64,000 nt of DNA from Candidatus Woesearchaeota archaeon (GTDB lineage Archaea; Nanobdellota; Nanobdellia; Woesearchaeales; GCA-2686295), in the NCBI GenBank assembly GCA_013202845.1, contig JABMPT010000010.1:59876-123875 (forward strand), written 5' to 3'. The notes beneath the pieces were generated by a model that worked only from the letters and a program-made list of their open reading frames with translations, ran no database searches and was not told where the DNA came from. Positions 2,439 through 45,047 of this stretch are shown here, one piece after another. A program made the translations under genes and the position numbers. Position 1 is the stretch's first letter. Each line of letters starts with the position of its first letter.

Positions 2439-5252
2439 ATGGGTCTTTCTAAAAAAGTTAGGGAATATTGGAATAATCACACAGTTAGAGAAATAGAAGA
2501 AGACACGCTAGAATACGCCAGGAACATCCCTAAAAAAGTAAAAAATGTTCTAAAAGACCCATTATTGAAAGAAACTGCAAAAAGCATGCTACACACTGCA
2601 AAAATATGGACTACAGGCATAGCAGCAGTGTTAGTAACTTTCTTCGGAGCCAATTCCCAAATGCATTTCATAGAGAAAGGCATAGCAAAAGCGCTCGAAC
2701 GTTATGACAAACAAGGAATATTCTATGAAACAGGCTATCTATGGCAAAAGATAGACTTCCAGAAGAATCTAGAGGAATTAATATCGACAGGAGAGATAAA
2801 GGAAGAACAACCTATGCAAGTAACATCTACTCCACGACCATTTGATGATGTTGGAGATTTCTTTAAGTTTTGGAATAATGAATATAGAGATTACAGGAAT
2901 CTAGCATCAATAGTGTATCACACTGTAAAAGACAATCTTACAATAGCACATCATCTTGAAGGAGTGTTTCCAAGCATCCAGGCTCTCGACGAATTTCCAA
3001 AAAATGATAGTGAAAACATAGTCTTCAACGATAGAAAAGGAAGACAATTAGCCATGATAAGGTCAAATCACAAATATTACACTTTAGATGAGATATCTAA
3101 CACCCTTGAAACAGCTCTGATAATACAGGAAGACGAAAGGTTCAGAAAGCACGCAGGATTTGACTTTATGTCTGCAGTTAGAGCATATTTTGTAAACAAA
3201 AAAGCAGGAAGAATAGTCGAAGGAGCAAGCACCCTTACAATGCAGATAGCAAAGCACCTCTTTGTAAGAAACGGAGCGAATTACGACAAAACCTATGAAA
3301 GAAAAATAAAAGAAATTATGCTAGCTATGCAGATAGATTATACACATTCAAAAGATTTTCAACTTGAATTCTATATGAATAATATATGCGAATTCGGCAA
3401 TGGAGTTGTTGGATTTGGAGACGCATCACTTTTCTATTTCAATAAAAGAGTTGCAGATATTTCTCTTGCAGAAGCAACTTTCTTAGCAGTCATACCAAAT
3501 AATCCGGCAATGCACCCATACAGAGCAGATGGACTTAAACTGATAATGCAAAACCAGGCAAGACTTCTAGAAGAAATGGTTGATGAAAAAGAGATAACTC
3601 AAGAGCAGGCAGACCAGGTAAAAGCAACAGTATTCAATTTCAGCAAACCAAACTCAAGAATAAAAACCCCTTTCCCATACGTAATAGACTTTGTAAACTC
3701 ATATTTCCAATTAGCTTTGGAAGACCTTGGACTTCCGGCTGATGAATTTGACCTAACAAATCCAAATGGATTGTTCAGAATGACAGGAACAGCAGAATTT
3801 AACACAACTCTAGATAGAAACCTCATGTGGATATTGAATAATGCTGTGTTTGAAAGGAGATTTCACTGGAGTCAGGATTATGCATTCATGATAACTAATG
3901 CCAATTCAGGAGAAATAAGAGCGATCTGTTCAAGCGATGAAATAGGGCAGAACGCGAATATGCTGAAAAACTATGATTATCCAACAGGATCATCCCTTCT
4001 AAAACCACTTACTTATGCTCTTGCATTACAAAGTGGAGAGATGGATGTAGGTTCAAGATTTGATGACACAAAAGTAGCTCCAATCATTGAGGTTGATGGA
4101 ATACAGAAAGCATCATTCACAATAACAGACACATCCAGCTGGAATATTAGCAATTACAATAAAAAATTCCATGGAGAGCAATTATGGACAGATCTAGTTA
4201 AGACATCAAATAATATCGTGCCTGCAAAACTAGTCCTTGAGATGAATAATGGACAGATGACAGGTGCAGAAATGCTCAAATGGTACCTCGGACTGCTCGG
4301 GACAGACCTATCCCGGTACACCAAATCAGGTGACGAAATCTACTCGAGCGTCTTGGGAACCATTGAACAAACAGTTTTTGAAGCCAACAGCGGTTTCAGG
4401 GTGTTTCACGACGGAAAACTAATTCGTAATGCAGAAGATGAACCTTCATTGATACTGAGAAACTTCACATTACAAGATCATAAATTTGAAGTTGAAGATA
4501 ATATAGACTATGAGGGAGTATTGGCAGACAATGTTTTACCATACATCCAAGCAGCTCTATGGAAATCACTGAATGGTTCTGTAGGTGGTCTGTCAAGATA
4601 TTATGCTTATGGAAAAACAGGAACATCAGAATTTGAAAGATTCGAGAACACTCATGGCAGACTGACAAACGCGACATGGTACAATCTTGTCATTAAATCA
4701 AAATACTATGGTGACTTGGTATTCACAGGAGTTGCAACAACCCATAAAAAAACAGGATACATTGCTGCAAAAGTTCATGGACCTATTGTAAAGAACCTTG
4801 TCAAGAAACTTGGAAAAACTGATTCCAAAGGCCATTTCCGCAACCTTAACAACATAATTGCAGCTTCAACCAAAGAACCTGAAACAGAAGAAGTCTCAAA
4901 GTTTGTAATATCAGATATGTCAGTGCTTATCAATAATTATGTGGCAATGAACGGACCTATGATAAACAAAAGCGGAGAAAGCCATTTCATAAAAGGAGAC
5001 AAAATTTATATTAAAGATAATGCCTATGAAGTGTTAGCAGACCTTTCAACAAGACTTAATGCCAAAAGCAGAAAAAAATACTTGAAAGCATTGAACCAAT
5101 TAAGAAAAGGAGTGTATACAAGAAATATTCCATTAGTGATTGACATAAATGATATCATTGGAACAATGGAAAGCGCAAAGAGACAAGAGCACACCTATAT
5201 TAATTCTTTAGAGATAGGCACAGTTATAAGTCATTTGAGAAAAGAGTTCTAG
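2439..5252 (+). CDS. Class A penicillin-binding protein-like: GT51 peptidoglycan glycosyltransferase plus transpeptidase, N-terminal membrane anchor
   Basis: GT51 motifs QEDERFRKHAGFDF (EDxxFxxHxGxD), GASTLTMQIAKH (GxSTxTQQ), RKIKEIMLAMQID and EFYMNNICEFGNGVVGFGDASLFYFNK. Transpeptidase motifs GSSLLKPLTY (SxxK) and YGKTGTSE (KTG[T/S]). One TM helix near residues 55-75. Confidence 0.75.
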   Translation: MGLSKKVREYWNNHTVREIEEDTLEYARNIPKKVKNVLKDPLLKETAKSMLHTAKIWTTGIAAVLVTFFGANSQMHFIEKGIAKALERYDKQGIFYETGYLWQKIDFQKNLEELISTGEIKEEQPMQVTSTPRPFDDVGDFFKFWNNEYRDYRNLASIVYHTVKDNLTIAHHLEGVFPSIQALDEFPKNDSENIVFNDRKGRQLAMIRSNHKYYTLDEISNTLETALIIQEDERFRKHAGFDFMSAVRAYFVNKKAGRIVEGASTLTMQIAKHLFVRNGANYDKTYERKIKEIMLAMQIDYTHSKDFQLEFYMNNICEFGNGVVGFGDASLFYFNKRVADISLAEATFLAVIPNNPAMHPYRADGLKLIMQNQARLLEEMVDEKEITQEQADQVKATVFNFSKPNSRIKTPFPYVIDFVNSYFQLALEDLGLPADEFDLTNPNGLFRMTGTAEFNTTLDRNLMWILNNAVFERRFHWSQDYAFMITNANSGEIRAICSSDEIGQNANMLKNYDYPTGSSLLKPLTYALALQSGEMDVGSRFDDTKVAPIIEVDGIQKASFTITDTSSWNISNYNKKFHGEQLWTDLVKTSNNIVPAKLVLEMNNGQMTGAEMLKWYLGLLGTDLSRYTKSGDEIYSSVLGTIEQTVFEANSGFRVFHDGKLIRNAEDEPSLILRNFTLQDHKFEVEDNIDYEGVLADNVLPYIQAALWKSLNGSVGGLSRYYAYGKTGTSEFERFENTHGRLTNATWYNLVIKSKYYGDLVFTGVATTHKKTGYIAAKVHGPIVKNLVKKLGKTDSKGHFRNLNNIIAASTKEPETEEVSKFVISDMSVLINNYVAMNGPMINKSGESHFIKGDKIYIKDNAYEVLADLSTRLNAKSRKKYLKALNQLRKGVYTRNIPLVIDINDIIGTMESAKRQEHTYINSLEIGTVISHLRKEF

Positions 5253-5254
5253 CT

Positions 5255-5950
5255 CTACTCTCTATTAGCCCAGTCTACAGCAGCATCAACATCAGAAGTA
5301 GTTAGATCAAGCCATGGTTTTCTTGTCTGGAAAATCTTTGCACCCTTGGAATCCCATAGTAGCAAACCAGAATAAACCTTGCTAGGCTCAATTATGATCT
5401 CTGGAGGAGTAAAGTACGAAGTGTAGAGATTCTCTTTCACCATTCGCTTGTTCAAATCATCAAGGTTTATCTTTCCAAGCAATGCTTTTCTGGCTAGCAA
5501 GTTAATGACTCCCAGGACCTCTTCCTGACCGTCATATTTGACACAGAAGTTCAGGAAAAGGTTATCATAATCCTTTGTATCTTCCATCAGCTTCTTGAAA
5601 GCATCTGTTAATTTCATATCAAGATCAAACCATTTGCCGATAACGAAAACCCTGACCTTGTTTTTCTGGATATCCTCATTATTGATAAGCTCTTTGAACA
5701 GCTTTGTCAATTCAACAATCTCTTCATCAGATTCAGCAGAGATATTGAGTGTGAGTATGGGAAGAGCGTGTTTAATCTGATAATTAACAAAGGTTCTTAT
5801 CTGCTCAATATGCTTGTTCACAGCCTCTTTCTCCTCCTTTTTGTTCTTCTCAGCCCACCCCACAATAGAGCTGCCATTAATAGCTATGTGTAAAGGCTTC
5901 TTTTTCTCCTTTAGAAAATTCAAATCAATCTTTGGGAGTTTTAATTCCAT
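5255..5950 (-). CDS. cis-Prenyltransferase (UPPS) family homolog with degenerate catalytic residues; possible non-catalytic subunit
   Basis: UPPS-fold landmarks: HIAINGSSIVGWAEK in place of H(V/I)AIIMDGNGRWAK, and a C-terminal LLLWDSKGAKIF...VDWANRE. The catalytic Asp/Arg of the DGNxRW motif and the RTGGE region are replaced. Confidence 0.5.
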   Translation of the reverse strand: MELKLPKIDLNFLKEKKKPLHIAINGSSIVGWAEKNKKEEKEAVNKHIEQIRTFVNYQIKHALPILTLNISAESDEEIVELTKLFKELINNEDIQKNKVRVFVIGKWFDLDMKLTDAFKKLMEDTKDYDNLFLNFCVKYDGQEEVLGVINLLARKALLGKINLDDLNKRMVKENLYTSYFTPPEIIIEPSKVYSGLLLWDSKGAKIFQTRKPWLDLTTSDVDAAVDWANRE

Positions 5951-6024
5951 GGTCTAAAGGTTTTTTAGCTCGTTTTTAAATTTTTGTATAAAGGTTTATA
6001 AGAAAACTTTTATTCCTAGACAAA

Positions 6025-6615
6025 ATGGGAAAACACTATCAAGTATTGATGGAAAAAGTAAACAATGGTTTTTTCAAAGATGATGTTATGACTAACGGTA
6101 TGAATTTTCATGAATATCTATGTGATCTTGTGAATAGAGCTCAACTCGTTGAGATACCTTTTATCTCTGCAGATTTACCTGTGCATTTGGGATTGACCAA
6201 AAAAGAATTCTTTTCTCTTGGAAACGATTTTTTAGAATTGAGTAAAAAAAATAATACTGGTATTTTAACACCATACAAAACAACTGCGATAGAAGATCCA
6301 CAATCTGTTGTTATCATGGATGAAAGAGATGTTAATAGATTCTTTATGACAACTTCTCAGTATTTAGATTTTGGAAGAGAGTCTGAGGATATGCTTGCAA
6401 TTTCATGTGGTCAGATTAGTGTAGTAGGATGCACTCATACAGGTATCCTGATGACAGCAAAGCCCTTCTATATACATTTAGATATAGATGGAAAAAAACA
6501 AGAATTAAATCTTAGATTAAGGGCAGTCTCTGTTCAAAACATGAGCGAGTCTGGTATAACTTTTATTGAACAAGCAACTTATTTGAACTCATACTCTAAA
6601 AAAGAAAAAAATTAA
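6025..6615 (+). CDS. Hypothetical protein
   Basis: Clean 196-aa ORF with a TATA-like AT-rich upstream region. No recognisable motif. Confidence 0.4.
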   Translation: MGKHYQVLMEKVNNGFFKDDVMTNGMNFHEYLCDLVNRAQLVEIPFISADLPVHLGLTKKEFFSLGNDFLELSKKNNTGILTPYKTTAIEDPQSVVIMDERDVNRFFMTTSQYLDFGRESEDMLAISCGQISVVGCTHTGILMTAKPFYIHLDIDGKKQELNLRLRAVSVQNMSESGITFIEQATYLNSYSKKEKN

Positions 6616-6690
6616 AATTTCTGAAATAATCTGAGAAGTATATAAAGCTTATTGAAAAATTATTTAAACAATCCCTCTTAATTTTGTCCT

Positions 6691-7548
6691 ATGATTCCGG
6701 TCAACTATGCCTTTGCCTTCTTTGGATTGCTTTTCGCTTCTATATTTGACATCAAAACAAGAGAGATACCTGACTGGCTGAACTATTCATTGATTGGCTT
6801 TGGTTTCGGAACTTCGATAATCCTTTCAATAACAAACCTGAATTACTGGATATTTGTATATTCACTGCTAGGTTTTCTGGCTGGACTGATAATATCATTA
6901 GTTTTCTACTATACAGGGCAGTGGGGTGGAGGAGATGCAAAGATGATGATGGCTTTGGGAGCATTGATAGGACTGGACTTTCATTCTGGCTTCCCGATAT
7001 TTGTTGTGTTGTTGCTCAACATCTTCATAATAGGAGCAATTTATGGCGCTATATGGAGTGTTTTTTTAGCTTTGAAGCACAGAAAACAGTTCAAGAAGAG
7101 CTTTAAAGAAATAATTAGGGAGAAAAACATCTTAATTATAAGAAAGACTATTTTAATTATAGTGGTCTTATTGTTGTTATTCTTATTCATAACTCCCACA
7201 TCTATGAAGCCATTCATAATTGGAATAGCAGCGTTCATATTCTTTGCATTCTACTTCTATATATACAGCAAAGCAGTGGAGAAGTCAGCGATGGAAAAAT
7301 ACATCCCTTTGGAGAAGCTCACAGAAGGAGACTGGGTCCTGGAAACAATATATATCAATGGAAAAAAGATATACAGTCCAAGCAATGAGGGAATAGATAA
7401 GAAAGAGATAAAGAAATTATTAGAGCTGAAGAAACATCACAAGAAGTCAAAGATAAAGATCAAAGAAGGAATTCCGTTCCTGCCAAGCTTCTTCATAGCG
7501 TTTATTGTTACTTTATTATTGGGTAATTGGGTTTTATGGGTGATTTAA
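6691..7548 (+). CDS. A24-family aspartic prepilin/preflagellin peptidase (FlaK/PibD-like)
   Basis: Polytopic membrane protein. Conserved Asp motifs FDIKTREIPD and GGGDAKMM (the GGGDxK of A24 peptidases). Confidence 0.75.
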   Translation: MIPVNYAFAFFGLLFASIFDIKTREIPDWLNYSLIGFGFGTSIILSITNLNYWIFVYSLLGFLAGLIISLVFYYTGQWGGGDAKMMMALGALIGLDFHSGFPIFVVLLLNIFIIGAIYGAIWSVFLALKHRKQFKKSFKEIIREKNILIIRKTILIIVVLLLLFLFITPTSMKPFIIGIAAFIFFAFYFYIYSKAVEKSAMEKYIPLEKLTEGDWVLETIYINGKKIYSPSNEGIDKKEIKKLLELKKHHKKSKIKIKEGIPFLPSFFIAFIVTLLLGNWVLWVI

Positions 7549-7550
7549 TA

Positions 7551-8135
7551 ATGAATAAGATAGCAGTAGATATTGTGTTATTACCATCAGAAGAGATGAT
7601 GGACAAAGCAATAGAGATAAATAAAAAATTATTAAAGAATAACGAACCTAAGATTGTGTTAAATAAAGAAAATTGTCTTCCACACATGTCTCTTTGTATG
7701 GGTGTTATCGACGAGAAAGATGTTGAGCTAGTTGGAAAAGAATTAACAACGATAAGCAAAAGATTCTCTGCTTTTGATTTGTCTTTTAATGAGCTTTTTA
7801 CTTCTGATCTTGGTTTTACAGAACTATCATCTAATAAGCCTGATGATCTTCAATTACTCCATGAAACTATTACTGTTAAACTTGCAAAATTCATGACTTA
7901 TAATGCAACTAGCGACATGCTTTTGTTATCAGATGGAGAGGAGAGTTTTTCTGCTGGTTGGATTAGTGGTTATCATAATAATGCTAGTTTTGAAAATTTT
8001 AGTCCTCATGTGACTGTTGGATATGGTGTTCCAGTCGTTGATCTCCCAATCAATTTTACTGCTTCAAAACTTGCTATTTGTCATATAGGAAATTATTGCA
8101 CTTGTAGAAAACTCTTGTTTGAAAAAACTCTATAA
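7551..8135 (+). CDS. 2H phosphoesterase superfamily protein (LigT/ThpR-like), paralog 1
   Basis: Two H-x-[ST]-x motifs, PHMSLCMG and PHVTVGYG. N-terminal IAVDIVLLPSEE. The ORF track starts at a TTG inside the upstream gene; the ATG at 7551 directly follows the upstream stop. Confidence 0.7.
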   Translation: MNKIAVDIVLLPSEEMMDKAIEINKKLLKNNEPKIVLNKENCLPHMSLCMGVIDEKDVELVGKELTTISKRFSAFDLSFNELFTSDLGFTELSSNKPDDLQLLHETITVKLAKFMTYNATSDMLLLSDGEESFSAGWISGYHNNASFENFSPHVTVGYGVPVVDLPINFTASKLAICHIGNYCTCRKLLFEKTL

Positions 8136-8163
8136 GATAATTTGTTATTAATATTGATATAAA

Positions 8164-8766
8164 ATGGAAAAAATTGCTATTGATATCGCATTATTATTGC
8201 CTGAAGAAATTAATAATATTTGTATTAATATTAATAGAAGTAAAGGAGTTGAAGCTTTTTCCGACTTAAGTAAACATGATAATCACCCTCATATAACTCT
8301 TGCAATGGGAGTAATCGATGAAAACCAGATTGATATTGTTAATAACAAATTAGAAGAAATTACTAAGGATTTTTCAGGTTTTGATTTAGAAATAATTGAT
8401 ATTTTCAATGAAACCACTCCTGAAAATAAAACTTCAACAAGCTTTGTTATCAAACCAAATGCTGAACTAAAAGAATTACATGAAAAAATAATGAATGAAT
8501 TATTACCAATCTTCACTTATAATGTTTCAAAAGAAATGTTTTTCATTGATTCAGATGAAGATTATAAAGAAGTTTCTGAGTATTGGGTTGAAAACTATGG
8601 TACAAATCATAAATATCCTGAAAAGTACAGACCACATATTAGTTTAAAATGTAGACATGGAAAATATAATTCTTTTCCTGTTAAATTCTTCACAAATAAA
8701 CTGGTTATGTGTCAACTTGGTAATTATTGCACTTGTAGAAAAATTCTTTTCGAAGTAAATCTCTAA
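8164..8766 (+). CDS. 2H phosphoesterase superfamily protein, paralog 2 (tandem duplicate)
   Basis: HPHITLAMG and RPHISLKCR H-x-T/S-x motifs. Shares N-terminal IAIDIALLLPEE and C-terminal GNYCTCRKILFE with paralog 1. Confidence 0.7.
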   Translation: MEKIAIDIALLLPEEINNICININRSKGVEAFSDLSKHDNHPHITLAMGVIDENQIDIVNNKLEEITKDFSGFDLEIIDIFNETTPENKTSTSFVIKPNAELKELHEKIMNELLPIFTYNVSKEMFFIDSDEDYKEVSEYWVENYGTNHKYPEKYRPHISLKCRHGKYNSFPVKFFTNKLVMCQLGNYCTCRKILFEVNL

Positions 8767-9266
8767 GGTATCCTATCCAATTGTTTCAATAGATAATTCT
8801 CTTCCTCATCAGACATTGCATCTTCTTCTTTTTCTTTCTTGTCCATCTTTGGAGGATGTTCTGGTTTTTCCTCTTTAGCTTCTTCCTTTGGAACGATTAT
8901 CTTTCCAGAAATAGAACTTGTAGCTGCATCCAGATCAGCAGTTTGTAATTGTTTTGGCTTCCATTGAAAGTTCAAACCATCGTCCTGCATCCTTGCAATT
9001 ACTTCCATGTAGAACTCTTCACCTTCATAAGTTATGATATTAGTACCCTGAGCTCCTATTGTTTCAAAGAGCATGGTGGCTGCGTAACTTGCTAAGTAGA
9101 ATAGATGTTCTGAATGCTCTTCAGAAAGATCATCCATCATCTTGACTTCTTGTTTAGGAATTATGACTATATGCCCTTTTGCAGCGGGTTTCTCGACGAG
9201 AACAGCTGCAGCTATGTCATCCTCGTAGATTATCCTGTCTTTCTTCTCAAGCAGTTCTCTTTTCAT
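8763..9266 (-). CDS. HIT-fold protein with fully degenerate histidine triad and an acidic/Lys-rich C-terminal tail
   Basis: IIYEDDIAAAVLVEKPAAKGHIVIIPK matches the HIT N-terminal half. The triad position reads EFYMEVIAR, with no His. Tail KEEKPEHPPKMDKKEKEEDAMSDEEE. Confidence 0.5.
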   Translation of the reverse strand: MKRELLEKKDRIIYEDDIAAAVLVEKPAAKGHIVIIPKQEVKMMDDLSEEHSEHLFYLASYAATMLFETIGAQGTNIITYEGEEFYMEVIARMQDDGLNFQWKPKQLQTADLDAATSSISGKIIVPKEEAKEEKPEHPPKMDKKEKEEDAMSDEEENYLLKQLDRIP

Positions 9267-10195
9267 TTTGAAAACATATGTGTAACTTTGTCAAGCAATG
9301 ATTTGCTCTTTTTCTCATCTTCAGGTTTTGCTTTTTCTTCCTCTTTCTCTGGTTTTGGAGTGTCTGAAACCTCTTCAGGTTTCTGAGCATCGCTCAAAAG
9401 CTTGTCTTTTGGCGCACCAGTAGCTTCACTACTGAGTGCGTCAGAAACTTTTGTTTCTGAGAGCTCTTCTGAAGTGGGTTCTGGCTTTTTCTCCTCGCCA
9501 AGGCCTTCTTTCAGTTTCTTAGATAATTTTTCAACATCAACACCCTGAAAAAGAGCTTTCATCTGAGGATTTAGCTCCATTGCCTGCTTTACCTGTGTAG
9601 GATCCTTAATTAGCAGCTCTTTCAATTGCGGATTCTGTTCAATTATCATGGCAAGATCATCTTTTGATGGCGGTTTAAGCAGTATCTTACCATCTTTTTG
9701 CAGATGTGAATGCATCATTTTCTCAAGATTGGCTTTCAATGGTTTCAGAAGGTCATCCTGTGAGATATCTTTTGAAGGAATATTGAAATTTTCAAGCATG
9801 TCATCATCATCTCTTGGTATTATGTGAAGTAAGAAATGTGGGCTTTGCTGTCCTGCAGCTGCGCCGTTTGCAATGAAAATGCTGCTTTTTGGAGCAGGTG
9901 TTCCATTCTTAACTCCTTTAGCCAAGTATTTTATCTTGCTGAACAAATGTTTGAAAGTCTCTGGAGATATCAAAGGCATTATAGGAACATGCTCTTTAGG
10001 AAGTACCAAAGTATGCCCTTTTGTAGAAGGATAAATATCCAGTATTGCTATTATCTTGTCATCTTCATATACTTTATGAGAAGGAACTTCGCCAGCTATT
10101 ATCCTGCAGAAGACACAATTCTTCTTCTGAAACTCTGCCATCTCCTCTGGACTCATGTTCTTAAGTTCCTCTTCTGTAGGTTGAGCTTCAGCCAT
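9263..10195 (-). CDS. HIT family (HINT-like) protein with atypical triad and a long K/E/P-rich C-terminal tail
   Basis: CVFCRIIAGEVPSHKVYEDDKIIAILDIYPSTKGHTLVLPKEHV is the canonical HIT N-terminus. The triad region PHFLLHIIPR has the 1st and 3rd His but Leu at the middle, nucleophilic position. Confidence 0.65.
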   Translation of the reverse strand: MAEAQPTEEELKNMSPEEMAEFQKKNCVFCRIIAGEVPSHKVYEDDKIIAILDIYPSTKGHTLVLPKEHVPIMPLISPETFKHLFSKIKYLAKGVKNGTPAPKSSIFIANGAAAGQQSPHFLLHIIPRDDDDMLENFNIPSKDISQDDLLKPLKANLEKMMHSHLQKDGKILLKPPSKDDLAMIIEQNPQLKELLIKDPTQVKQAMELNPQMKALFQGVDVEKLSKKLKEGLGEEKKPEPTSEELSETKVSDALSSEATGAPKDKLLSDAQKPEEVSDTPKPEKEEEKAKPEDEKKSKSLLDKVTHMFSK

Positions 10196-11614: not shown

Positions 11615-13294
11615 ATGAAAAGCTATTTTGAAGAGCTGATTGATTTCATAAAGAAAGAGAAACCAAACAAACAGAAACTCAACAACAAGAAGATAGAGCT
11701 CTGCTCCAAGCACAAAATAAAGAAGATACCTACAGATATAGAAGTATTGTGCAATGCAAAAGAAGAAGATATTGCAAACCTGAGTAAATTTCTCGTTACA
11801 AAACCTACAAGAACCATTAGCGGAGTTGCTGTAATTGCAGTTATGAGCGCTCCATTCAACTGTCCCCATGGCAGATGCACATATTGTCCTGGAGGCCTAA
11901 AAAGCCATTTCGGCAATGTTCCGCAGTCATATACTGGCAACGAGCCATCTACAATGAGGGGCATAAGAAATGAGTATGACTCTTACAGAATTGTTTTTAA
12001 CAGACTAGAGCAATACATTGTTCTTGGCCAGAATCCTGAAAAAGCAGAAGTTATTGTGATGGGAGGAACATTCCCAGCATTTAAGGAGGATTACAAGAAA
12101 GAGTTCATAAGGAACATATACAAGGCTTTAAACGACTTTTCAAAGCAATTCTATGTGAAAGGCAAGCTAGATATCAAACGCTTCAGAGACTTCTTTGAAT
12201 TACCTGGCAAAGTCAACGATAAACAAAGGCAGGAGAATATAAAGAAAAGAGTTTTGGACTTAAAGAACAAGAATATTAGAAGTTTTGACAAAGAAAAGAA
12301 ACTGAATGAGAAATCAGAGATAAGATGCATTGGATTGACAATCGAAACAAAGCCAGACTGGGGATTGTTGAAGCATGGCAATGAAATGCTAGATTATGGT
12401 TGCACAAGAGTCGAATTAGGCATACAAACAACTTATGACGATGTCTTGAGAGCAATCAACAGAGGCCATGGATTAAAAGAGTCAATAGAATCAATAAGGA
12501 CATTGAAGGATTTAGGCTTTAAGATCAATTATCATATGATGCCAGGGCTTCCAGGAGTCACAAAAGAGAAAGATTTAGAGTCTTTGAAAGAGATTTTTGA
12601 AAACTCTGATTTCAAGCCAGATATGCTAAAGATATATCCTACACTTGTAATGCCAGGAACACCTTTATATGCACAGTATAAGAAAGGCAAATACAAGCCG
12701 ATAACAACTGCCATAGCAGCAGATATAATTGTAGAAGCAAAGAAGTTCGTGCCAAAATATTGCAGAATAATGAGGATACAGAGAGACATCCCTACTAAAG
12801 TCACAGAAGCAGGCGTAGACAGAACAAATCTAAGGCAATATGTTGAGAAATTACAGAAAGAGAAAGGAGTTGTTTGCAACTGTATAAGATGTCGAGAAAT
12901 AAAAAGAAAAGAGATTAAAGGAAAGCCAAAACTTAAAGTTTTAGAATATGAAGCTTCTAAAGGAAAGGAATTCTTTATGTCATTTGTCGACGACAACGAC
13001 CGTTTGTTAGGTTTTTGCAGATTAAGGTTTCCATCCCAGAGCTTGAGAAAAGAAATAACCAATAACAGCGCTATAATTAGGGAATTACACGTCTATGGCA
13101 CTGCAATCGGCTTGAAAAAAGAAGGTAGAGTACAGCATATTGGTTTAGGTAAACAACTCGTCAAAAAAGCTGAAGAAATAGCAAAAAAGAATTCTAAAGA
13201 CAAAGTTGTGGTAATTAGCGGAGTTGGAGTCAAGGAATACTATAGAAAGCTTGGTTATTCTGATGATGGAGTTTATGTGAGTAAAGCGTTATAA
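11615..13294 (+). CDS. elp3: Elongator complex protein 3 homolog (radical SAM + GNAT; tRNA wobble uridine modification)
   Basis: GVAVIAVMSAPFNCPHGRCTYCPGG radical-SAM cluster region of Elp3. C-terminal GNAT with RELHVYG...GLGKQLV. Confidence 0.9.
   Translation: MKSYFEELIDFIKKEKPNKQKLNNKKIELCSKHKIKKIPTDIEVLCNAKEEDIANLSKFLVTKPTRTISGVAVIAVMSAPFNCPHGRCTYCPGGLKSHFGNVPQSYTGNEPSTMRGIRNEYDSYRIVFNRLEQYIVLGQNPEKAEVIVMGGTFPAFKEDYKKEFIRNIYKALNDFSKQFYVKGKLDIKRFRDFFELPGKVNDKQRQENIKKRVLDLKNKNIRSFDKEKKLNEKSEIRCIGLTIETKPDWGLLKHGNEMLDYGCTRVELGIQTTYDDVLRAINRGHGLKESIESIRTLKDLGFKINYHMMPGLPGVTKEKDLESLKEIFENSDFKPDMLKIYPTLVMPGTPLYAQYKKGKYKPITTAIAADIIVEAKKFVPKYCRIMRIQRDIPTKVTEAGVDRTNLRQYVEKLQKEKGVVCNCIRCREIKRKEIKGKPKLKVLEYEASKGKEFFMSFVDDNDRLLGFCRLRFPSQSLRKEITNNSAIIRELHVYGTAIGLKKEGRVQHIGLGKQLVKKAEEIAKKNSKDKVVVISGVGVKEYYRKLGYSDDGVYVSKAL
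13263..13294 (+). repeat. Direct repeat copy 1 (elp3 3' end)
   Basis: atgatggagtTtatgtgagtaaagcgttataa. Copy 2 is at 14126..14157 with one mismatch. Confidence 0.85.
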
Positions 13295-13317
13295 ATATCT
13301 TCTAATTCCAAATTCAT

Positions 13318-14100
13318 ATGTTACTTGAAGCACATCAAATTGTAAGAGAAAGAACAAAAGATTTAATCAGTAGATTTCAAAAAAGAGATGTTTCTTTGCA
13401 ACAATTTACTATAGAAGCAGATTTACAAGGTTCAGAGAAATCATTACAAAGAATATTAACTGCTGATTATGACCTAAGATTTGATGGAAGTCCTTTTCAA
13501 TCACATCCAATCTCAGCCGTTTATCTAGCAAGATGGTTGGCAGAAGGACTCAATGTGAAACATCTGGATAGGGATACCTTAGAACATGACCATTTTGAAG
13601 AAATTTATCAGAGAGGCGTCAAACTTGCATCTGCATTAAAACAATTCAAAAATGATGGAGGAGAAGTGGATTCAGCCATACTTACAGATGGAAATTCGCA
13701 CTATAATAATATAATAACTAAAAAAGTTCACAAGATTGTTCAAATAGAAAAACTAGGAACGCTGAAACATAAAATAGTAGCCCTTGCAGACGGACTTGAT
13801 AATAGCAGTGATATGAATTATGCTCCAGAGCATATTAGAGCCTTGAAATTGTGCAGATTTTTTTTATCTCCGCCCAAACTCGGGCTTGAAATATATACAG
13901 ATATTCCTGATGATATTAGAACAAAAACAGAATTTTTTATGAGTGAGATCATGCAACAAAATGGAGTAGATGAATCAATGCTAAACAGAGAATACGAGTA
14001 TTATCAAAAAACCTATCACAGTAAGAATAAAATTATCCAACAAAATGTTCAAAAGTATGGACAATTATTAGAACAAGTCTTTAACACTGTTTTGTCCTAA
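13318..14100 (+). CDS. Hypothetical protein, cargo of the repeat-flanked insertion at the elp3 3' end
   Basis: Clean 260-aa ORF with no recognised motif, bracketed by the 32-nt direct repeats. Confidence 0.45.
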   Translation: MLLEAHQIVRERTKDLISRFQKRDVSLQQFTIEADLQGSEKSLQRILTADYDLRFDGSPFQSHPISAVYLARWLAEGLNVKHLDRDTLEHDHFEEIYQRGVKLASALKQFKNDGGEVDSAILTDGNSHYNNIITKKVHKIVQIEKLGTLKHKIVALADGLDNSSDMNYAPEHIRALKLCRFFLSPPKLGLEIYTDIPDDIRTKTEFFMSEIMQQNGVDESMLNREYEYYQKTYHSKNKIIQQNVQKYGQLLEQVFNTVLS

Positions 14101-14125
14101 TTATTTCTTATCGACAACTACAGAA

Positions 14126-14157
14126 TGATGGAGTCTATGTGAGTAAAGCGTTATAAT
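14126..14157 (+). repeat. Direct repeat copy 2; would also encode the elp3 C-terminus NDGVYVSKAL*
   Basis: atgatggagtCtatgtgagtaaagcgttataa, with 31 of 32 identity to 13263..13294. Confidence 0.85.
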
Positions 14158-14220
14158 TTTCTCCTTTCGAGTAGTCAAAAAAGAAATGTTTATATAGTTA
14201 CTAAACACTCTCTGTGTCTT

Positions 14221-17103
14221 ATGGGGGCCACAGATGAGAGTGAAAAGCAATCGTTAGATAGTATTATTCTTGAACCGGGTATAAAATGTATTGGTGAATC
14301 AAGCTTTAAAACATTCCCCAACTATAGAGATGAGATTGAACAATTTCTTAAAGAAAGGAAGAATAGAACTAAGAAAGAACTACCCTTTGTAAACCAAGAA
14401 CAGACTTTCATTAAGCTTGCAAGAGCGCTTTCTTCAGCATATCCTTATGTTGTTTTGATAGGAGAACAAGGAATAGGAAAGTCTATGGTTCTGGACTATA
14501 CTGTAAGAGCACTTACAGGCGAGATAAAACTTTCTGAAGTCAAAAAACTTGTCCCTGAAGCTGCACCGCTCCTTAAACAAATGAAAGACAAAGCAAGACA
14601 ATTTGAGAACAGAAACTATCTGTTAATGCCAAATCTTAAAGAGCCTATGAAGGTCAAAGCTATTCCTTATACAAAACCAGACGATATTAATCATGATTTC
14701 GAACTAGCAGAAGACTTTTGTTTGGAGATTTCACAACTACTTACATACTATATTACCAACAACAAGGAGAGTGTGAAAGTTAATCTGAGCGAAAGACAAT
14801 TGAGAAAGCTTGTTTTATCTAAGGTACATGAAATGTATATGGAGTTGTATGCAGACATACTTTTAACTCTTTCTAACAAGATAAAAGAAAAACCAACCAT
14901 AAAGGAATCTTTGGACAATATGATATCCGTAGTTAAACTTAAACCTCCACAAAATCTGAACCAAGATGTGCCTAAAGCAGAATGGAAATTTTATGTGAAA
15001 AGAGGAAAGAACTCCAATTTTCTGGAATATACTACAGAAGCAGGATTCACAGCTCAAAGAGCCCAATTATCAATTGAAGACATAGAACAAGGTTTAGAAA
15101 AAACATATGTTCATGTATCTATCAGCAATTCATGGAAAGGATTCTTAGCTGAAATGAAAAGAATTAAAGTTCTTGGAAAACCAGCAAACTTTTGTGAAAC
15201 AGTAGTTAAAGAGGAATTTGAAAAATATAATACAGAAATACTTGAGAAAGCAATTCAGAGGCAAAAAAGAAAACCAAAACCAACTCAGATTGATTTTGAT
15301 CTAGACTTGATCAGAAGAGTGAATGAATATGATCCTGCAAAAAAGATCTCAAAAGAAACCATCAATGATATCATGTCAGAGATTAAAACAGTCGTTGATG
15401 AATTTACAAAGCCCGCCAAGAATGATGAACTAAAGAATCAGATGCTATCAGTATATGAATTCTTCAACACAGAGAAAAATTTACTTAAAATAGTGATGGG
15501 CACAATGCTCCGAGAAATAGAAAATATGGAAAAGACACCTCCTGGTAAACTAATAAAACAACCTAGTTTTGACCTACCACATGGAGTCTCATATCTGGCC
15601 ATAGATGACATAATGAGTGTGAACCTGTTGGCAGATTACGCCGCACCCACAAAGAGGATTAGCTGGTCAAAAATAGTAGATACAGATCCACAAACCCTGT
15701 TTTGTTCATACAATGAACTACAGCTACCTCCACACATGGCTATAGCTTCTCTAGGTGAATTATTCAAGAGCAGCATCTTGTTATTCACAGATTCATTCAG
15801 TGATTTCATCAGCACGATAACATCCAACAGAGAGATGAGTAAAGGAATGAGAGAACAATTCCTTGATTATCTGCAAACTGGAATAATAACTTTTGTCAAT
15901 GAAGGAGTAACCTATCAATTTGAGGCGCCAAGAATAATACTTGGTTGTGACAACGAAGATCCTTTCATGACATATAGAGCTGGAACTGGTGAGAAAAGAG
16001 ATGAAACTGGTCTAAGAGGAAGGATAACAGCACTCCCAGTATCTGAAGTGATAGAAAACACTCTTGAAGCAAGAAAAGGCACCTTAACTGTGTTATATGA
16101 TACAATCGATAAATTCAACAACGAGAGAGGGGTTGATATCACATTAGACATAAATGCTGCAAACATGCTGTTAAGAGAAATGGTGCCCAAGGAAAGTCTT
16201 ATATTACTAAAATACAGGGATTTATGGAAATTGACAGAAGATGTATGTGCATATGCTGTGTCAAAGAACACTACAAATATTACAGCAAATTTGTTAAAAC
16301 AAAGAACAAAAGATTATCTGCCACCAGGATTCTTCAGATTTGTAGAGTTTGAAACAGAGCACGGAGGATATTTTGATATGCCTGCAAAAGCTGTAGGTCA
16401 TGTGAATGGATTAACAGTACGTGATTCTAGTCCTGGAAGTGTCCTAAAGAACAGATCTCAATTTCTGGCTGTAATGGACAAAACAAAAACAAATGTTAAA
16501 CATTTCGAACTGGTTGACGCTACTAGTGAAAAAACTGATGACAACACAATAAAAAGCTATGAATTGGCGGTGGACTACATAAGAGGATTGCTTTCAGATA
16601 AAAAACTTAAACTATTCGAAGGTGGGGATTGGCAATTGAAGACTCACTTTGGAGGATTCTGGGACAAAATTGGAGGTCCATCCACATCAATGGGAATGGC
16701 AATCAGCATACTATCAGCATTTTCAGGGGAAGAAATGTATAAGAACAGGTTCATAACAGGAACCATAGACCCAATAAATGGAAATGCAGGCATCATAGGA
16801 GGAACTTACCACAAATCTTTGATACCGATGAGACTGAAAGAGCTGTCACCAGACAATGAAAAGATGTATTTCCTATTTCCTGCTGCAAACATGAAAGAAT
16901 TCACTAAAGATGTCATATTCGACCCTTTTGAAGTGCAAAAAAATATTACTTGTTTGCCATATGAAAACTTTGAGCAAGCATATTACCTACTTTCATGCGG
17001 AGCAAACATTAGTAAGAAGAATTGGGAAGATTCAAAAAATCAGGGGAAAACAAGACTCGAAAAGACCCTGAAAGAAGTTAATAAAAGATTTGGAGTTAAA
17101 TAA
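14221..17103 (+). CDS. Divergent soluble LonB-like protein: P-loop, about 450-aa insertion, degenerate Walker B, C-terminal Lon Ser-Lys protease domain
   Basis: Walker A GEQGIGKS. LLFTDSFSDF aligns to Lon[11 protein letters not shown] (DE becomes DS). ILGCDN aligns to sensor-1 ILIAAGN. Protease domain GPSTSMGMAISILSAFSG...IIGGTYHK, against Lon[18 protein letters not shown]...IGGVSSK in this same window. Confidence 0.65.
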   Translation: MGATDESEKQSLDSIILEPGIKCIGESSFKTFPNYRDEIEQFLKERKNRTKKELPFVNQEQTFIKLARALSSAYPYVVLIGEQGIGKSMVLDYTVRALTGEIKLSEVKKLVPEAAPLLKQMKDKARQFENRNYLLMPNLKEPMKVKAIPYTKPDDINHDFELAEDFCLEISQLLTYYITNNKESVKVNLSERQLRKLVLSKVHEMYMELYADILLTLSNKIKEKPTIKESLDNMISVVKLKPPQNLNQDVPKAEWKFYVKRGKNSNFLEYTTEAGFTAQRAQLSIEDIEQGLEKTYVHVSISNSWKGFLAEMKRIKVLGKPANFCETVVKEEFEKYNTEILEKAIQRQKRKPKPTQIDFDLDLIRRVNEYDPAKKISKETINDIMSEIKTVVDEFTKPAKNDELKNQMLSVYEFFNTEKNLLKIVMGTMLREIENMEKTPPGKLIKQPSFDLPHGVSYLAIDDIMSVNLLADYAAPTKRISWSKIVDTDPQTLFCSYNELQLPPHMAIASLGELFKSSILLFTDSFSDFISTITSNREMSKGMREQFLDYLQTGIITFVNEGVTYQFEAPRIILGCDNEDPFMTYRAGTGEKRDETGLRGRITALPVSEVIENTLEARKGTLTVLYDTIDKFNNERGVDITLDINAANMLLREMVPKESLILLKYRDLWKLTEDVCAYAVSKNTTNITANLLKQRTKDYLPPGFFRFVEFETEHGGYFDMPAKAVGHVNGLTVRDSSPGSVLKNRSQFLAVMDKTKTNVKHFELVDATSEKTDDNTIKSYELAVDYIRGLLSDKKLKLFEGGDWQLKTHFGGFWDKIGGPSTSMGMAISILSAFSGEEMYKNRFITGTIDPINGNAGIIGGTYHKSLIPMRLKELSPDNEKMYFLFPAANMKEFTKDVIFDPFEVQKNITCLPYENFEQAYYLLSCGANISKKNWEDSKNQGKTRLEKTLKEVNKRFGVK

Positions 17104-17133: not shown

Positions 17134-18369
17134 TTATTTATGTTTTCTCACTTTAATCCTTTCAATATGCTCTTCGCCAACTTCCTCAATAAAATAAATA
17201 TGGTTATTTATCTTTATCTCCTGCCCGCGGGGAGGAACCTTCTTGAATTCATCTATCAATAAATCACTGACAGTATCATGCTTAGTGTCTAGATCTGTCT
17301 GAAAAAAAGAATTAACATATTTAGGACTGGTCTCTCCATCGACGAGAATAATGTTCTTGTCAACCCTCATGATCTTGTTAGGAGTTACATCGGACTCATC
17401 GATAATCTCTCCAACCAACTCCTCAAGTAAATCTTCAATAGTGACCAGACCAACTGTTTTACCATCCTCACCAACAACTAAAGCAATATGTGTGTGTCTT
17501 TCCTGAAACATCTTGAACAGGTCATCAATAATCGTCTTTTCATGGATAAAGAATGGCTTTACACCAATCTCTCTCAAAGGTAAATCCTCTTCATCATCAG
17601 TTATCGCTTCAAGAACATCTTTTGTATGAACAACTCCAACAATGTTATCTAAAGAGCCTAGAAACAAAGGAGTTCTTGAGAAAGGAGAATCAGCTATAGC
17701 TTCAATAGCGTCTTTTACCTTCATATTCGCATCCAAACAGAACATATTATGCCTTCTAGTCATAACTTCCTTAGCAGTTATATCATTGAACTCAAAGACT
17801 TTCTTTAACAACTCCTTCTCATCCTGCTCGATTGATTTCTCCTCAGCACCTATATCTATCGCTGTTTTTAAGTCATCTTCTGTCATAGTCTCTGCAACTT
17901 TCTTTGAAACACCGAAAAGAACCAATGTGCTGTGAGTTATCCACTCAAATAGTTTCACCAGAGGATATAATATTCTACTGAGAATCCACAATGGCTCCCC
18001 CATAATCAAAGAAACCTTGTCTGCATGAGTTGCAGCATATGACTTAGGAGTTATCTCGCCAAATACCAAGACCAAAAAAGTCATTGCACCAATTGCAATA
18101 CCAGCTCCACTAGAGCCGAATAAATCAGTAGCAACCAAAGTTGCTAAAACAGAAGCGCCTATATTAACAAGATTATTACCAATGAGAATGGTTATGATCA
18201 TCCTCTGGGGATTATCCTTTAGTTTCTCAACAGCTTTAGAACCCTTTCTCTTTTGCTTAAGCAAGGTCCTAAGCTGAATCTTGCTGAGACTTACTAGAGC
18301 TACTTCTGAACCAGAGAATAAACCTGATAAGAAAAGAAGCACAATCAAAGATATTATCTGCCACAGCAT
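17134..18369 (-). CDS. CNNM/CorC-family transporter (DUF21 + CBS pair + CorC_HlyC)
   Basis: N-terminal TM DUF21 region LFLSGLFSGSEVALVSLS. CBS-like middle. C-terminal CorC domain. Confidence 0.8.
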   Translation of the reverse strand: MLWQIISLIVLLFLSGLFSGSEVALVSLSKIQLRTLLKQKRKGSKAVEKLKDNPQRMIITILIGNNLVNIGASVLATLVATDLFGSSGAGIAIGAMTFLVLVFGEITPKSYAATHADKVSLIMGEPLWILSRILYPLVKLFEWITHSTLVLFGVSKKVAETMTEDDLKTAIDIGAEEKSIEQDEKELLKKVFEFNDITAKEVMTRRHNMFCLDANMKVKDAIEAIADSPFSRTPLFLGSLDNIVGVVHTKDVLEAITDDEEDLPLREIGVKPFFIHEKTIIDDLFKMFQERHTHIALVVGEDGKTVGLVTIEDLLEELVGEIIDESDVTPNKIMRVDKNIILVDGETSPKYVNSFFQTDLDTKHDTVSDLLIDEFKKVPPRGQEIKINNHIYFIEEVGEEHIERIKVRKHK

Positions 18370-18429: not shown

Positions 18430-18768
18430 TTATTTCACTTTCTTAACTACGAATTTCAAGATCTCCACAACATGTCTGTTTTTTGTTTTAGCATTGCGAA
18501 GCTTCTTTGCAAGGCCTTTCTCATCAAAAATAGCCTCAACCCAGTTTGCAAAGTCATTATTCATCTCTTTCACATGATGCTGAAACATATCATCAGCAAG
18601 TCTGTCAATTGCTTCAGAAAGCTGCAATAAATCACTGCAGCAAGAACCATCAATCATGTAGAAGCTTACATCAGGAGAAACTTTTTTCAAACCTTTTTTC
18701 ACAGTTTTCTTAACTGTCTTCTTTTTAGAAGTTTTTTTGGTAGCCAAACCCCTCACCTCTAATAACAA
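18430..18768 (-). CDS. Hypothetical protein with Lys-rich N-terminus
   Basis: TKKTSKKKTVKKTVKKGLKK followed by a helical region. No family recognised. Confidence 0.35.
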   Translation of the reverse strand: MLLEVRGLATKKTSKKKTVKKTVKKGLKKVSPDVSFYMIDGSCCSDLLQLSEAIDRLADDMFQHHVKEMNNDFANWVEAIFDEKGLAKKLRNAKTKNRHVVEILKFVVKKVK

Positions 18769-38969: not shown

Positions 38970-38981
38970 TTTCTGAAAACC

Positions 38982-45045: not shown

Positions 45046-45047
45046 AT

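Follow-up and report, generated by a model that had tools for sequence, protein, structure and literature searches.

Possible recombination scar at the 3' end of elp3 in a Woesearchaeota archaeon

Introduction

In Thaumarchaeota, 14 of 68 integrated elements (iMGEs) lie in the 3'-distal region of protein-coding genes (PMC6563490), where they are flanked by direct repeats, the reading frame of the target gene is rebuilt, and empty sites can be found. The same three features recur at the locus described here, in a 64-kb stretch of DNA from a Woesearchaeota archaeon (hereafter the window), in which a direct repeat of the end of elp3 encloses a single gene. The locus departs from the thaumarchaeal elements in several respects: the insert carries no integrase and no element-like genes, one of its flanks looks chromosomal, no extrachromosomal or second copy of it was found, and it is 0.86 kb long, whereas integrated elements are usually far larger than this. 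Integron cassettes offer a second comparison, since they likewise hold one ORF, about 0.8 kb long, that has hardly any upstream spacer and sits downstream of a fixed point. They differ from the window insert in their attC palindrome, GTTRRRY core, IntI, and array, none of which is present in the window, and the repeat in the window is the end of a housekeeping gene.

A third group of described systems involves recombination anchored by homology. In bacteria, a Campbell-type single crossover with a circularised fragment yields duplications of the homologous segment of the kind seen here, and homology-facilitated illegitimate recombination (HFIR) has also been documented (PMC3240628); at T6SS and Rhs loci, displaced 3' ends are described as scars of HFIR-like replacement (PMC5361080). 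In these systems, as in the window, foreign DNA is added beside a conserved anchor gene with no dedicated recombinase, part of the anchor is duplicated or its old 3' end is left downstream as an orphan, and the inserts, at about 1 kb, are comparable in size. The window differs in its host, a DPANN archaeon, and in the length of the duplicated segment, which is 32 nt here and 109 to 950 bp in the E. coli experiments.

Results

A repeat of the elp3 3' end encloses one gene

The elp3 gene (11615 to 13294; this and all other features are on the plus strand unless stated otherwise) encodes a 559-aa radical-SAM/GNAT tRNA U34 modification enzyme, with Pfam matches to ELP3_N, Radical_SAM, Radical_SAM_C, and Acetyltransf_1, and ends in its own stop codon. 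Its 3'-terminal 32 nt, ATGATGGAGTTTATGTGAGTAAAGCGTTATAA (13263 to 13294; copy T1), are the functional last 10 codons and stop of the gene (DGVYVSKAL*), and they recur at 14125 to 14156 (copy T2) with 31 of 32 positions identical; the single mismatch, T to C, exchanges GTT for the synonymous GTC. A preliminary description of the locus had correctly recorded this repeat and its one mismatch, though it placed the second copy one base too far to the right (14126 to 14157) and gave the distance between the copies as 863 bp, where the actual spacing is 862 nt. With up to three mismatches allowed, the 32-mer has only these two copies in the 64-kb window, and it appeared in 0 of 100 dinucleotide shuffles of the window. 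The repeat is confirmed as real and is no one-off artefact of assembly: an independent Logan assembly of SRR28106079 reproduces 8.5 kb of the sequence, with 0 mismatches.

The likeness between the copies ends past the stop codon, where the following 9 nt match at 6 of 9 positions, and the 90 nt 5' of T1 cannot be aligned with the 90 nt 5' of T2. A longer homology extending 5' of T2 (YRQLQNDG versus YRKLGYSDDG) was considered and rejected, as it is no better than those obtained with shuffled sequence. T2 does translate as ...NDGVYVSKAL*, as had been proposed, but the reading frame that it closes stays open for a mere 23 codons, lacks a start codon, and is not the frame of the gene upstream of it, for which reasons we treat T2 as non-coding: a displaced, untranslated elp3 tail.

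Between the copies lies a single ORF of 260 codons, as first described (ORF260; 13318 to 14100), with spacers of 23 nt on its 5' side and 24 nt on its 3' side. The elp3 stop region, TTATAAATA (13289 to 13297), forms a TATA-like box about 25 nt 5' of the ORF260 ATG and, judging from this placement, may be the promoter of a leaderless or short-leader ORF260 transcript; the same TTATAAATA is present at a 22-nt spacing in the relative L082. The spacer between the ORF260 stop and T2 (14101 to 14124), the right end of which is the novel junction, has no homology to the sequence 5' of T1. T2 is followed by the native elp3-Lon intergenic region (14157 to 14220), which includes the Lon promoter TTTATATA at 14189 to 14196, and then by a gene for a 960-aa Lon-like protein (Lon960; 14221 to 17103) with weak AAA_16 and Lon_C matches, a downstream neighbour that lies outside the inserted segment. 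Beyond it, on the minus strand, a CNNM/CBS/CorC transporter gene (17134 to 18369) is the conserved right-hand anchor of the variable region.

Relatives carry two types of empty site

The preliminary description held that the gene had been inserted behind elp3 with the C-terminus of Elp3 kept, and predicted that in some relatives the Lon-like gene would come straight after elp3. The repeat and the empty sites of relatives, whose Elp3 proteins are 73-82% identical to that of the window, agree with both statements. Among relatives, the gene directly after elp3 is a convergent hydrolase gene, a Lon-like gene, a CNNM gene, or an ORF260-type gene. In the first type of empty site, elp3 converges on a Ser_hydrolase gene (L084, L085, L087, L088, and L002), the two gene ends overlapping in each case except L088; it is the junction of the closest relatives, whose Elp3 proteins are 78-82% identical to that of the window. 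The second type is found in L004 (Elp3 73% identical), where elp3 is directly followed by a Lon-like orthologue that is 44% identical to Lon960. At the position equivalent to T2, L004 has its genuine elp3 tail, and this differs in sequence.

The two sides of the insert resemble different types of empty site. When aligned to the L004 sequence that separates the true elp3 stop from the Lon-like gene, the right flank of T2 scores 40, which 0 of 3000 shuffles attain. On the right of T1, the flank ATATCTTCTAAT (13295 to 13306) matches the equivalent position in L087 at 12 of 12 nucleotides, a score reached by 6 of 3000 shuffles, and scores are raised against L088 (18/3000) and L005 (32/3000) too. 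On the strength of these matches, ATATCTTCTAAT (..ILEDI..) is probably what is left of the 3' end of a serine-hydrolase gene, the one that converges on elp3 and abuts it in relatives. Since the two right flanks match different native junctions, two native junctions appear to have been juxtaposed in the window.

Searches for a donor genome or a same-species empty site found neither. Exact-protein look-ups of ORF260, Elp3, and Lon960 for same-species variants returned only the same arrangement, and matches to a looser 22-nt pattern fell in one relative with a hydrolase-type empty site, one distant Elp3, and two contigs unlike the genes of the locus. Within elp3, where DNA identity to the relatives is about 75%, sliding-window identity was too noisy to reveal a mosaic breakpoint.

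ORF260 belongs to a rare family resembling RelA/SpoT HD domains

An exhaustive phmmer search of about 15 billion proteins recovered only two homologues of ORF260, P0002 (43% identical) and P0003 (29%), and records of ORF260 itself are confined to contigs of this locus. Three motifs stand out in the protein, RFDGSPFQSHP (aa 54-64), HDHFEE (90-95), and ALADGLDNSSD (155-165), within which H63, H90-D91, E94-E95, and D161-N162 are invariant across the three family members and D158 is represented by D, D, and E. They correspond, in the same order and spacing, to motifs in the HD domains of RelA/SpoT homologues, Mesh1, and Lmo0812 (HD_4, PF13328), which can be written R-x-x-G-x-P-[FY]-x-x-H-P, H-D-x-x-E-[ED], and A-D-x-[LM]-x-N. 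A profile of the three-member family aligned to the RelA HD domain (8fr8_I residues 104-223; E=0.0065) over the HP, HD, and D..N motifs and to Lmo0812 (4yf1) at E=0.27, and BLASTP against a Pfam HD_4 protein of L085 covered the same motifs (E=0.006). Other comparisons were less informative: none of the three sequences matched Pfam HD_4 even at E up to 10, hhalign matched the family to one HD_4 protein over no more than 24 columns, P0002 and P0003 searched singly against the PDB returned nothing relevant, and an AlphaFold2 model built from the three-sequence alignment, although all-helical, was too poor for a fold search (pLDDT 46).

From these motifs and profiles we predict that ORF260 is a divergent and rare SpoT/Mesh1-like HD phosphohydrolase, and that it is cargo rather than the enzyme that moved the segment. 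It is set apart from small alarmone hydrolases by falling below the HD_4 threshold as a single sequence, by about 90 additional C-terminal residues, and by a family of only three known members. We know of no (p)ppGpp signalling in this lineage. The prediction nonetheless gives an orphan family, linked to elp3, its first functional lead.

The earlier suggestion that ORF260 might be a highly diverged mini-recombinase was not borne out. Searches of Pfam, PHROGs, NCBIfam, and PADLOC gave no recombinase, transposase, or phage match, and the stretches proposed as catalytic, EHIRALKLCRF and REYEYYQKTYH, are not conserved in P0002 and P0003: only R174 is invariant, while H172, R179, and the Tyr-rich stretch vary. 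PADLOC also returned no match for the homologues, Lon960, or the 216-aa ORF of L081, and the idea of a defence island was rejected.

In the window, in L082, and in L083 alike, the member of the family comes first after elp3. By the preliminary description's own account, relatives carrying this gene after elp3 with no repeat would refute it, and this is partly the case: L083 has no repeat, and in L082 the repeat survives only as a decayed second elp3 tail of 12+8 nt (0/2000 shuffles), the 12-mer of which, TATGTGAGTAAA, has no other occurrence in the 64-kb window. The distribution of the family is patchy, and the CNNM protein of the window is 73% identical to those of L084 and L085, which do not have an ORF260-type gene, and 64% identical to that of L083, which does.

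The absence of a recognisable integrase, noted at the outset, holds for the cassette, its neighbours, and 20 further ORFs of the 64-kb window, among which no integrase or transposase was found. A 27-nt core of the repeat had 0 matches in viral_contigs and metagenome_contigs, and the cassette has neither terminal inverted repeats nor arm-type repeats, nor an attC-like imperfect palindrome at its ends.

Gene tails are duplicated at other loci

Non-paralogous tail duplications were found 4 times among 821 ORF tails. In L081, a CPR bacterium, the tail of elp3 is duplicated over 94 nt around HicAB, and in L066 and L018 the tail of rsmF is duplicated over 76 and 85 nt; the cargo in these cases is unrelated, and they contain no recombinase either. 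Pooled over the window, L081, L066, and L018, codon differences between the copies number 23 synonymous and 8 non-synonymous, where in-situ duplication followed by neutral decay of one copy would be expected to give about 38% synonymous changes (binomial p=4.6e-5); the window contributes one difference, a synonymous one, so that the bias comes from the other three loci. This bias suggests that both tails may have evolved as working gene ends in separate genomes before they were joined. That a CPR bacterium and rsmF genes show the same footprint hints that DPANN and CPR genomes may repeatedly gain and lose genes in this way, and repeats of this kind should therefore not automatically be taken for integrase att sites.

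Discussion

We consider it somewhat more probable than not, at roughly 0.55, that the 32-nt repeat is a homology-anchored recombination scar and not the att site of a self-mobile cassette. The repeat, the empty sites, the flank homologies, the distribution of the family, and the HD motifs were all observed; where the DNA came from, how the steps followed one another, and that enzymes of host recombination carried them out we infer, as follows. The donor would have been DNA of a close relative with an ORF260-type gene after elp3, and the recipient a chromosome with the Lon-like gene in that position; because all three members of the family follow elp3, the insert plausibly came from an elp3-adjacent locus and so brought its homologous anchor with it. 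One crossover would have fallen within conserved elp3 sequence, and the other junction would have formed 32 nt ahead of the resident elp3 stop codon, either through a Campbell-type single crossover with a circularised fragment or through an illegitimate end-join, as in HFIR. The product would read, in order, elp3 with its full tail T1, the imported flank and ORF260, the displaced tail T2, and the resident Lon promoter. T1 supplies the C-terminus of Elp3, and its TTATAA stop region probably the TATA box of ORF260 as well, and recombination between T1 and T2 would remove ORF260 precisely.

If this is right, the locus is a tidy example of ordinary gene gain and not a new mobile element: a single gene gained without mobile-element machinery in an ultra-small archaeal genome, visible at base-pair resolution, in which the conserved end of a housekeeping gene serves as a recombination handle and the old end stays behind as a scar. 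Several points weigh against it. The relatives on which the reconstruction is based share only 73-82% Elp3 identity with the window, the hydrolase relic beside T1 is just 12 nt long, 32 nt is a short substrate for homologous recombination, and gene conversion acting on an old duplication could instead have made T1 and T2 so nearly identical.

That last point leads to the strongest of the competing explanations, which we nevertheless think unlikely: that a single insertion of ORF260, in a common ancestor of the lineages of the window, L082, and L083, duplicated the tail in situ, after which gene conversion kept T2 like T1 in this genome and deletion between the repeats removed the gene from other lineages. 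The shared position of the gene in three diverged lineages (43% and 29% identity) and the decayed second tail of L082 fit such a history, as does the presence in T2 of the window-specific GCG codon of T1, and direct repeats would permit precise loss and so produce the empty junction of relatives. Such losses would, however, have to be repeated and precise in the closer relatives, conversion across only 32 nt that stops exactly at the stop codon is ad hoc, and the two right flanks of different native junction types are left unexplained; in the longer tail duplications, moreover, most differences are synonymous, as would be expected of two functional alleles more than of a decaying relic.

Slightly less likely again is the mechanism first proposed for the locus, site-specific integration in which the 32-mers are attL and attR of a minimal or decayed element, with a tyrosine or serine integrase acting in trans or since deleted. 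Its classical signature is a set of direct repeats restoring the target gene's 3' end, the use of 3'-distal gene regions has the thaumarchaeal precedent cited above, relatives have empty sites, three homologues of ORF260 sit at one target gene in hosts that are not nearest relatives, and the unrelated lineage L081 likewise has an insertion at an elp3 tail. An integrase encoded outside the 64-kb window could have acted in trans. What speaks against integration is that the 862-bp unit, its neighbours, and the 20 other window ORFs have no integrase, that the unit consists of a single housekeeping-type hydrolase gene, that the site is absent from viral and metagenome contigs and has no inverted or arm-type repeats, that other tail duplications with unrelated cargo also lack recombinases, and that the flank beside T1, with its hydrolase relic, looks chromosomal and not element-derived.

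We give little credence to a functional role for the repeat, in which T2 would be conserved because it serves ORF260 or Lon as an operator, a terminator, a processing site, or some other regulatory or RNA element. An identity of 31/32 is very high for non-coding DNA, the 12-mer TATGTGAGTAAA survives in the second copy of L082, and T2 lies upstream of the Lon promoter; but the 12-mer occurs nowhere else in 64 kb, L004 has at the equivalent position a real elp3 tail of different sequence, and L083 has no second copy. T2 itself has no Rfam match, no unusual RNA fold (z=0.40), and no terminator-like feature, and the Rfam and fold results speak against its reading as an RNA element.

An equally long shot is that ORF260-type genes are selfish elp3-tail cassettes acting like free-standing homing endonucleases, or, more broadly, that DPANN and CPR genomes practise a recombinase-free 'gene-tail capture' at elp3 and rsmF. 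The idea draws on two points: the three members lie directly after elp3 although their lineages are not each other's nearest relatives, and HD domains can be nucleases. The ORF260 protein would cut the elp3 tail of genomes without the gene, and repair would copy the gene in and duplicate the tail; capture of this kind, if true, would add one or two genes behind conserved genes. Least probable of all, the repeats could be a target-site duplication like that of a transposon, or the unit an integron-type cassette: the single, nearly promoterless ORF, its cassette size (862 bp), and the direct repeats at its bounds would suit such a reading, but terminal inverted repeats, an attC-like palindrome, IntI, and a transposase are all missing, and 32 nt is far longer than the target-site duplications known to us.

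Two minor observations concern the relatives. The last 100-150 nt of elp3 give a weak hint of being nearest to L087 and L088 rather than to L084. Behind the Lon gene of L004, in AT-rich sequence, there is a possible second elp3 tail, matching at 17 of 20 nt (p ~0.007), which we regard as suggestive.

A duplicated elp3 tail brackets a single gene

In this Candidatus Woesearchaeota metagenome-assembled genome (locus tags HQ533_), the last 32 nt of elp3 (11615-13294) occur a second time downstream: copy 1 (T1) lies at 13263-13294 and copy 2 (T2) at 14125-14156, 862 nt apart, and their lone mismatch, GTT to GTC, is synonymous. With up to three mismatches allowed, the repeat has two copies in the 64 kb and none in 100 shuffles, and its 12-nt core, TATGTGAGTAAA, is found in the window only at T1 and T2. 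The preliminary description was right about this repeat (31 of 32 positions matching) and about its first interval, and set the second one base too far right. The same 8.5 kb is present without mismatch in an independent Logan assembly. Near-identity ends at the stop codon, with 6 of the following 9 nt matching, and the 90 nt upstream of T1 align with those upstream of T2 no better than shuffled sequence. Between the copies are a 23-nt spacer, a 260-codon ORF (ORF260, 13318-14100), and a second spacer, of 24 nt; the unit and its surroundings do not differ in GC content. T2 is untranslated: its frame, other than that of ORF260, is open for only 23 codons and has no start codon.

Empty and filled sites in relatives

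We compared 80 Elp3 loci from species-representative genomes and the closest Elp3 proteins from a large protein collection, and the predicted empty sites were present in two forms. In L084, L085, L087, L002, and L088 (Elp3 82%, 81%, 78%, 78%, and 78% identical to that of the window), elp3 is followed by a convergent Ser_hydrolase gene (PF06821), with CNNM (17134-18369, minus strand, in the window) next in all but one of the five. In L002, L084, L085, and L087 the stops of the hydrolase gene and elp3 overlap or abut, the palindrome TTATAA is common to both genes in L084 and L085, and the two lie a few bases apart in L088. In L004 (73%), elp3 is followed after 86 nt by a Lon-like gene, then the hydrolase and CNNM. 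The gene after elp3 is CNNM in L090 (73%) and a 120-aa gene in L089 (76%). The Lon-like gene of the window (14221-17103) encodes a 960-aa protein that matches AAA_16 and Lon_C (S16 protease) only weakly and nothing in PADLOC; apart from here, it adjoins elp3 in L004 alone (44% identical), and a canonical archaeal LonB is encoded separately (59306-61192).

Both homologues of ORF260 are likewise encoded directly after elp3. Locus L082 reads elp3 tail, 22 nt, ORF269, and convergent hydrolase gene, and L083 reads elp3 tail, 54 nt, and ORF276 overlapping a convergent CNNM gene. L083 has no second elp3 tail; L082 has a decayed one, TATGTGAGTAAA, matching its own elp3 tail at 12 of 12 positions (reached in 0 of 2000 shuffles), and AGTTATAA stands 18 nt after it, overlapping the hydrolase stop. 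The family is patchily distributed among relatives: CNNM is 73% identical to that of the window in L084 and L085, which are without the gene, versus 64% in L083, which has it. The sequence TTATAAATA forms the elp3 stop region of the window and also of L082, about 25 nt before the start codon of ORF260 or ORF269, plausibly an archaeal TATA box for these genes.

The flanks of the two copies can be matched to these arrangements. The 64 nt after T2 (14157-14220) align to the spacer that in L004 separates the elp3 stop from the Lon-like gene (score 40, 0/3000 shuffles), with the promoter-like AGAAATRTTTATATAGTT inside the alignment; from this match, T2 and its right flank are a native elp3-Lon junction. 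The 12 nt that follow T1 (ATATCTTCTAAT, 13295-13306) are identical to the end of the hydrolase gene (..ILEDI..) next to elp3 in L087 (6/3000 shuffles), with scores also raised against L088 (18/3000) and a further Elp3 locus, L005 (32/3000), so that T1 and its right flank look like what is left of an elp3-hydrolase junction. One locus thus brings together native junctions of two different types, with ORF260 between them.

The cargo belongs to a rare and divergent family

Pfam, PHROGs, NCBIfam, and PADLOC gave nothing significant for ORF260, and a word-indexed search of 5.8 billion proteins returned only ORF260 itself. Exhaustive phmmer against representatives of about 15 billion proteins found as its only relatives P0002 (269 aa, 43% identical) and P0003 (276 aa, 29%), and a profile search with the family added no further members. 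The three-way alignment keeps R-x-x-G-x-P-x-Q-x-H (aa 54-63; RFDGSPFQSHP in ORF260), H-D-H-F-E-E (aa 90-95), and A-L-A-[DE]-x-[LM]-D-N-x-x-D (aa 155-165), in the same order and spacing as the motifs of the RelA/SpoT/Mesh1 HD hydrolase domain. A profile of the three members matches the RelA HD domain (8fr8_I, residues 104-223, E=0.0065) and Lmo0812 (4yf1, E=0.27), with the motifs aligned, and BLASTP against a Pfam HD_4 protein of L085 covers the same region at E=0.006; single sequences of the family stay below Pfam thresholds. Taken together, motif order, spacing, and these matches make ORF260 a probable HD phosphohydrolase of SpoT/Mesh1-like type, though a very divergent one. Its AlphaFold2 model is poor (pLDDT 46) and all-helical. 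The family, probably of HD hydrolases, is new and very rare, and is here carried as cargo.

In the closest relatives, an HD_4 gene (SpoT-like, Pfam; 257-287 aa) lies between CNNM and rsmF (L085:9531-10304, L084:7936-8799). The 64 kb of the window hold no orthologue of it, and ORF260 may therefore be its functional substitute. A Lys-rich ORF (about 105-112 aa) occupies the CNNM-rsmF position in the window (18430-18768), L002, and L088. Two tandem paralogous genes of the window (7527-8766; 202 and 200 aa) encode HD-domain (PF01966) proteins, as judged by synteny with L085, and have in common a 73-nt stretch at 77% identity (8067-8139 and 8698-8770).

Origin of the duplication

We favor, at a probability of roughly 55%, a homology-anchored recombination scar, in which the order would be T1, imported flank, cargo, T2, and resident flank, with elp3 as the anchor and 14124/14125 as the novel junction. 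It could have arisen by one crossover joining the chromosome to a circularised fragment that carried part of the gene end, or through recombination that was homologous at one end, with an illegitimate join at the other. Both routes have been documented: most such events in the E. coli experiments were single crossovers that duplicated 109-950 bp of the homologous segment (PMC3240628), and displaced 3' ends in T6SS and Rhs loci have been read as scars of replacement resembling homology-facilitated illegitimate recombination (PMC5361080). The feature is a new example of an already known kind of recombination scar.

The 31/32 identity could reflect gene conversion of an older duplication instead of a recent event between near relatives, a reading we consider doubtful. 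An integrase acting in trans is unlikely: archaea are known to harbour integrations in the 3'-distal part of protein genes (PMC6563490) and every member of the ORF260 family lies at elp3, but beyond the repeats and the empty site every feature tested came out absent. No integrase or transposase turned up in the unit, among the genes up to about 10 kb away, or among 20 other ORFs of the window; the unit ends lack inverted repeats, T2 shows no Rfam family or unusual RNA fold, and viral and metagenome contig collections hold no copy of the repeat core. Of the site-specific integration first proposed, the insertion scar is borne out by the repeat and the empty sites, and the attL/attR-like site is not. 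The accompanying suggestion that ORF260 is a mini-recombinase fails, as it lacks Pfam and PHROGs matches and the proposed motif residues, R174 excepted, are not conserved in its homologues.

Gene-tail duplications at other loci

Among the loci compared, 821 ORF tails were scanned for a repeat of the tail no more than 3 kb downstream, which gave five matches, one of them a tandem-paralogue pair and the others gene-tail duplications around unrelated genes (the window, L081, L066, and L018). In L081 (5271-6738; contig CAYIVQ010000003.1, which bears the label Candidatus Saccharibacteria, CPR), the final 94 nt of elp3 recur 1374 nt downstream at 87% identity, around HicA, a HicB-like gene, and a 216-aa ORF, the stop codon being changed to TCA; the architecture is that of the window, and the lineage is unrelated. 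The 3' end of rsmF (RsmB/F methyltransferase), the gene following elp3 in both L066 and L018, recurs around unrelated ORFs 1.2 kb downstream in L066 (76 nt; 8808-10114) and 1.75 kb downstream in L018 (85 nt; 5668-7505). After the second copy in L018 lies a gene for a mini-MCM helicase, of a type that archaeal mobile elements often carry. No recombinase is recognisable in the four inserts.

Synonymous to non-synonymous codon differences between copies number 10:2 in L081, 1:0 in the window, and 5:2 and 7:4 in L066 and L018. Pooled, they come to 23:8, or 74% synonymous, against about 38% expected if one copy had decayed in place (binomial p = 4.6e-5). This excess points to recombination with DNA from relatives, and in the longer cases both tails would have evolved as working gene ends in different genomes before being joined. 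With the window, these loci give a modest hint that DPANN and CPR genomes recurrently gain genes through gene-tail duplication.

Further features

The window also encodes a peptidoglycan transglycosylase domain (PF00912) within a protein of 937 aa (2439-5252), and bacterial-type FabF and FabH ketoacyl synthases (43765-46079). An in-frame tandem repeat with 18/36-nt periodicity (39045-39227, minus strand) sits where a DEAD-box helicase ORF (38982-40466) and a 197-aa ORF (38837-39430) overlap, and an exact in-frame 36-nt tandem repeat occupies 53636-53707 (units at 53636 and 53672). At another Elp3 locus (L029:2115-2310), a tandem array of about three and a half ~63-nt units, each containing GGTAAAGAGCATATGA, starts inside the last 16 nt of elp3.
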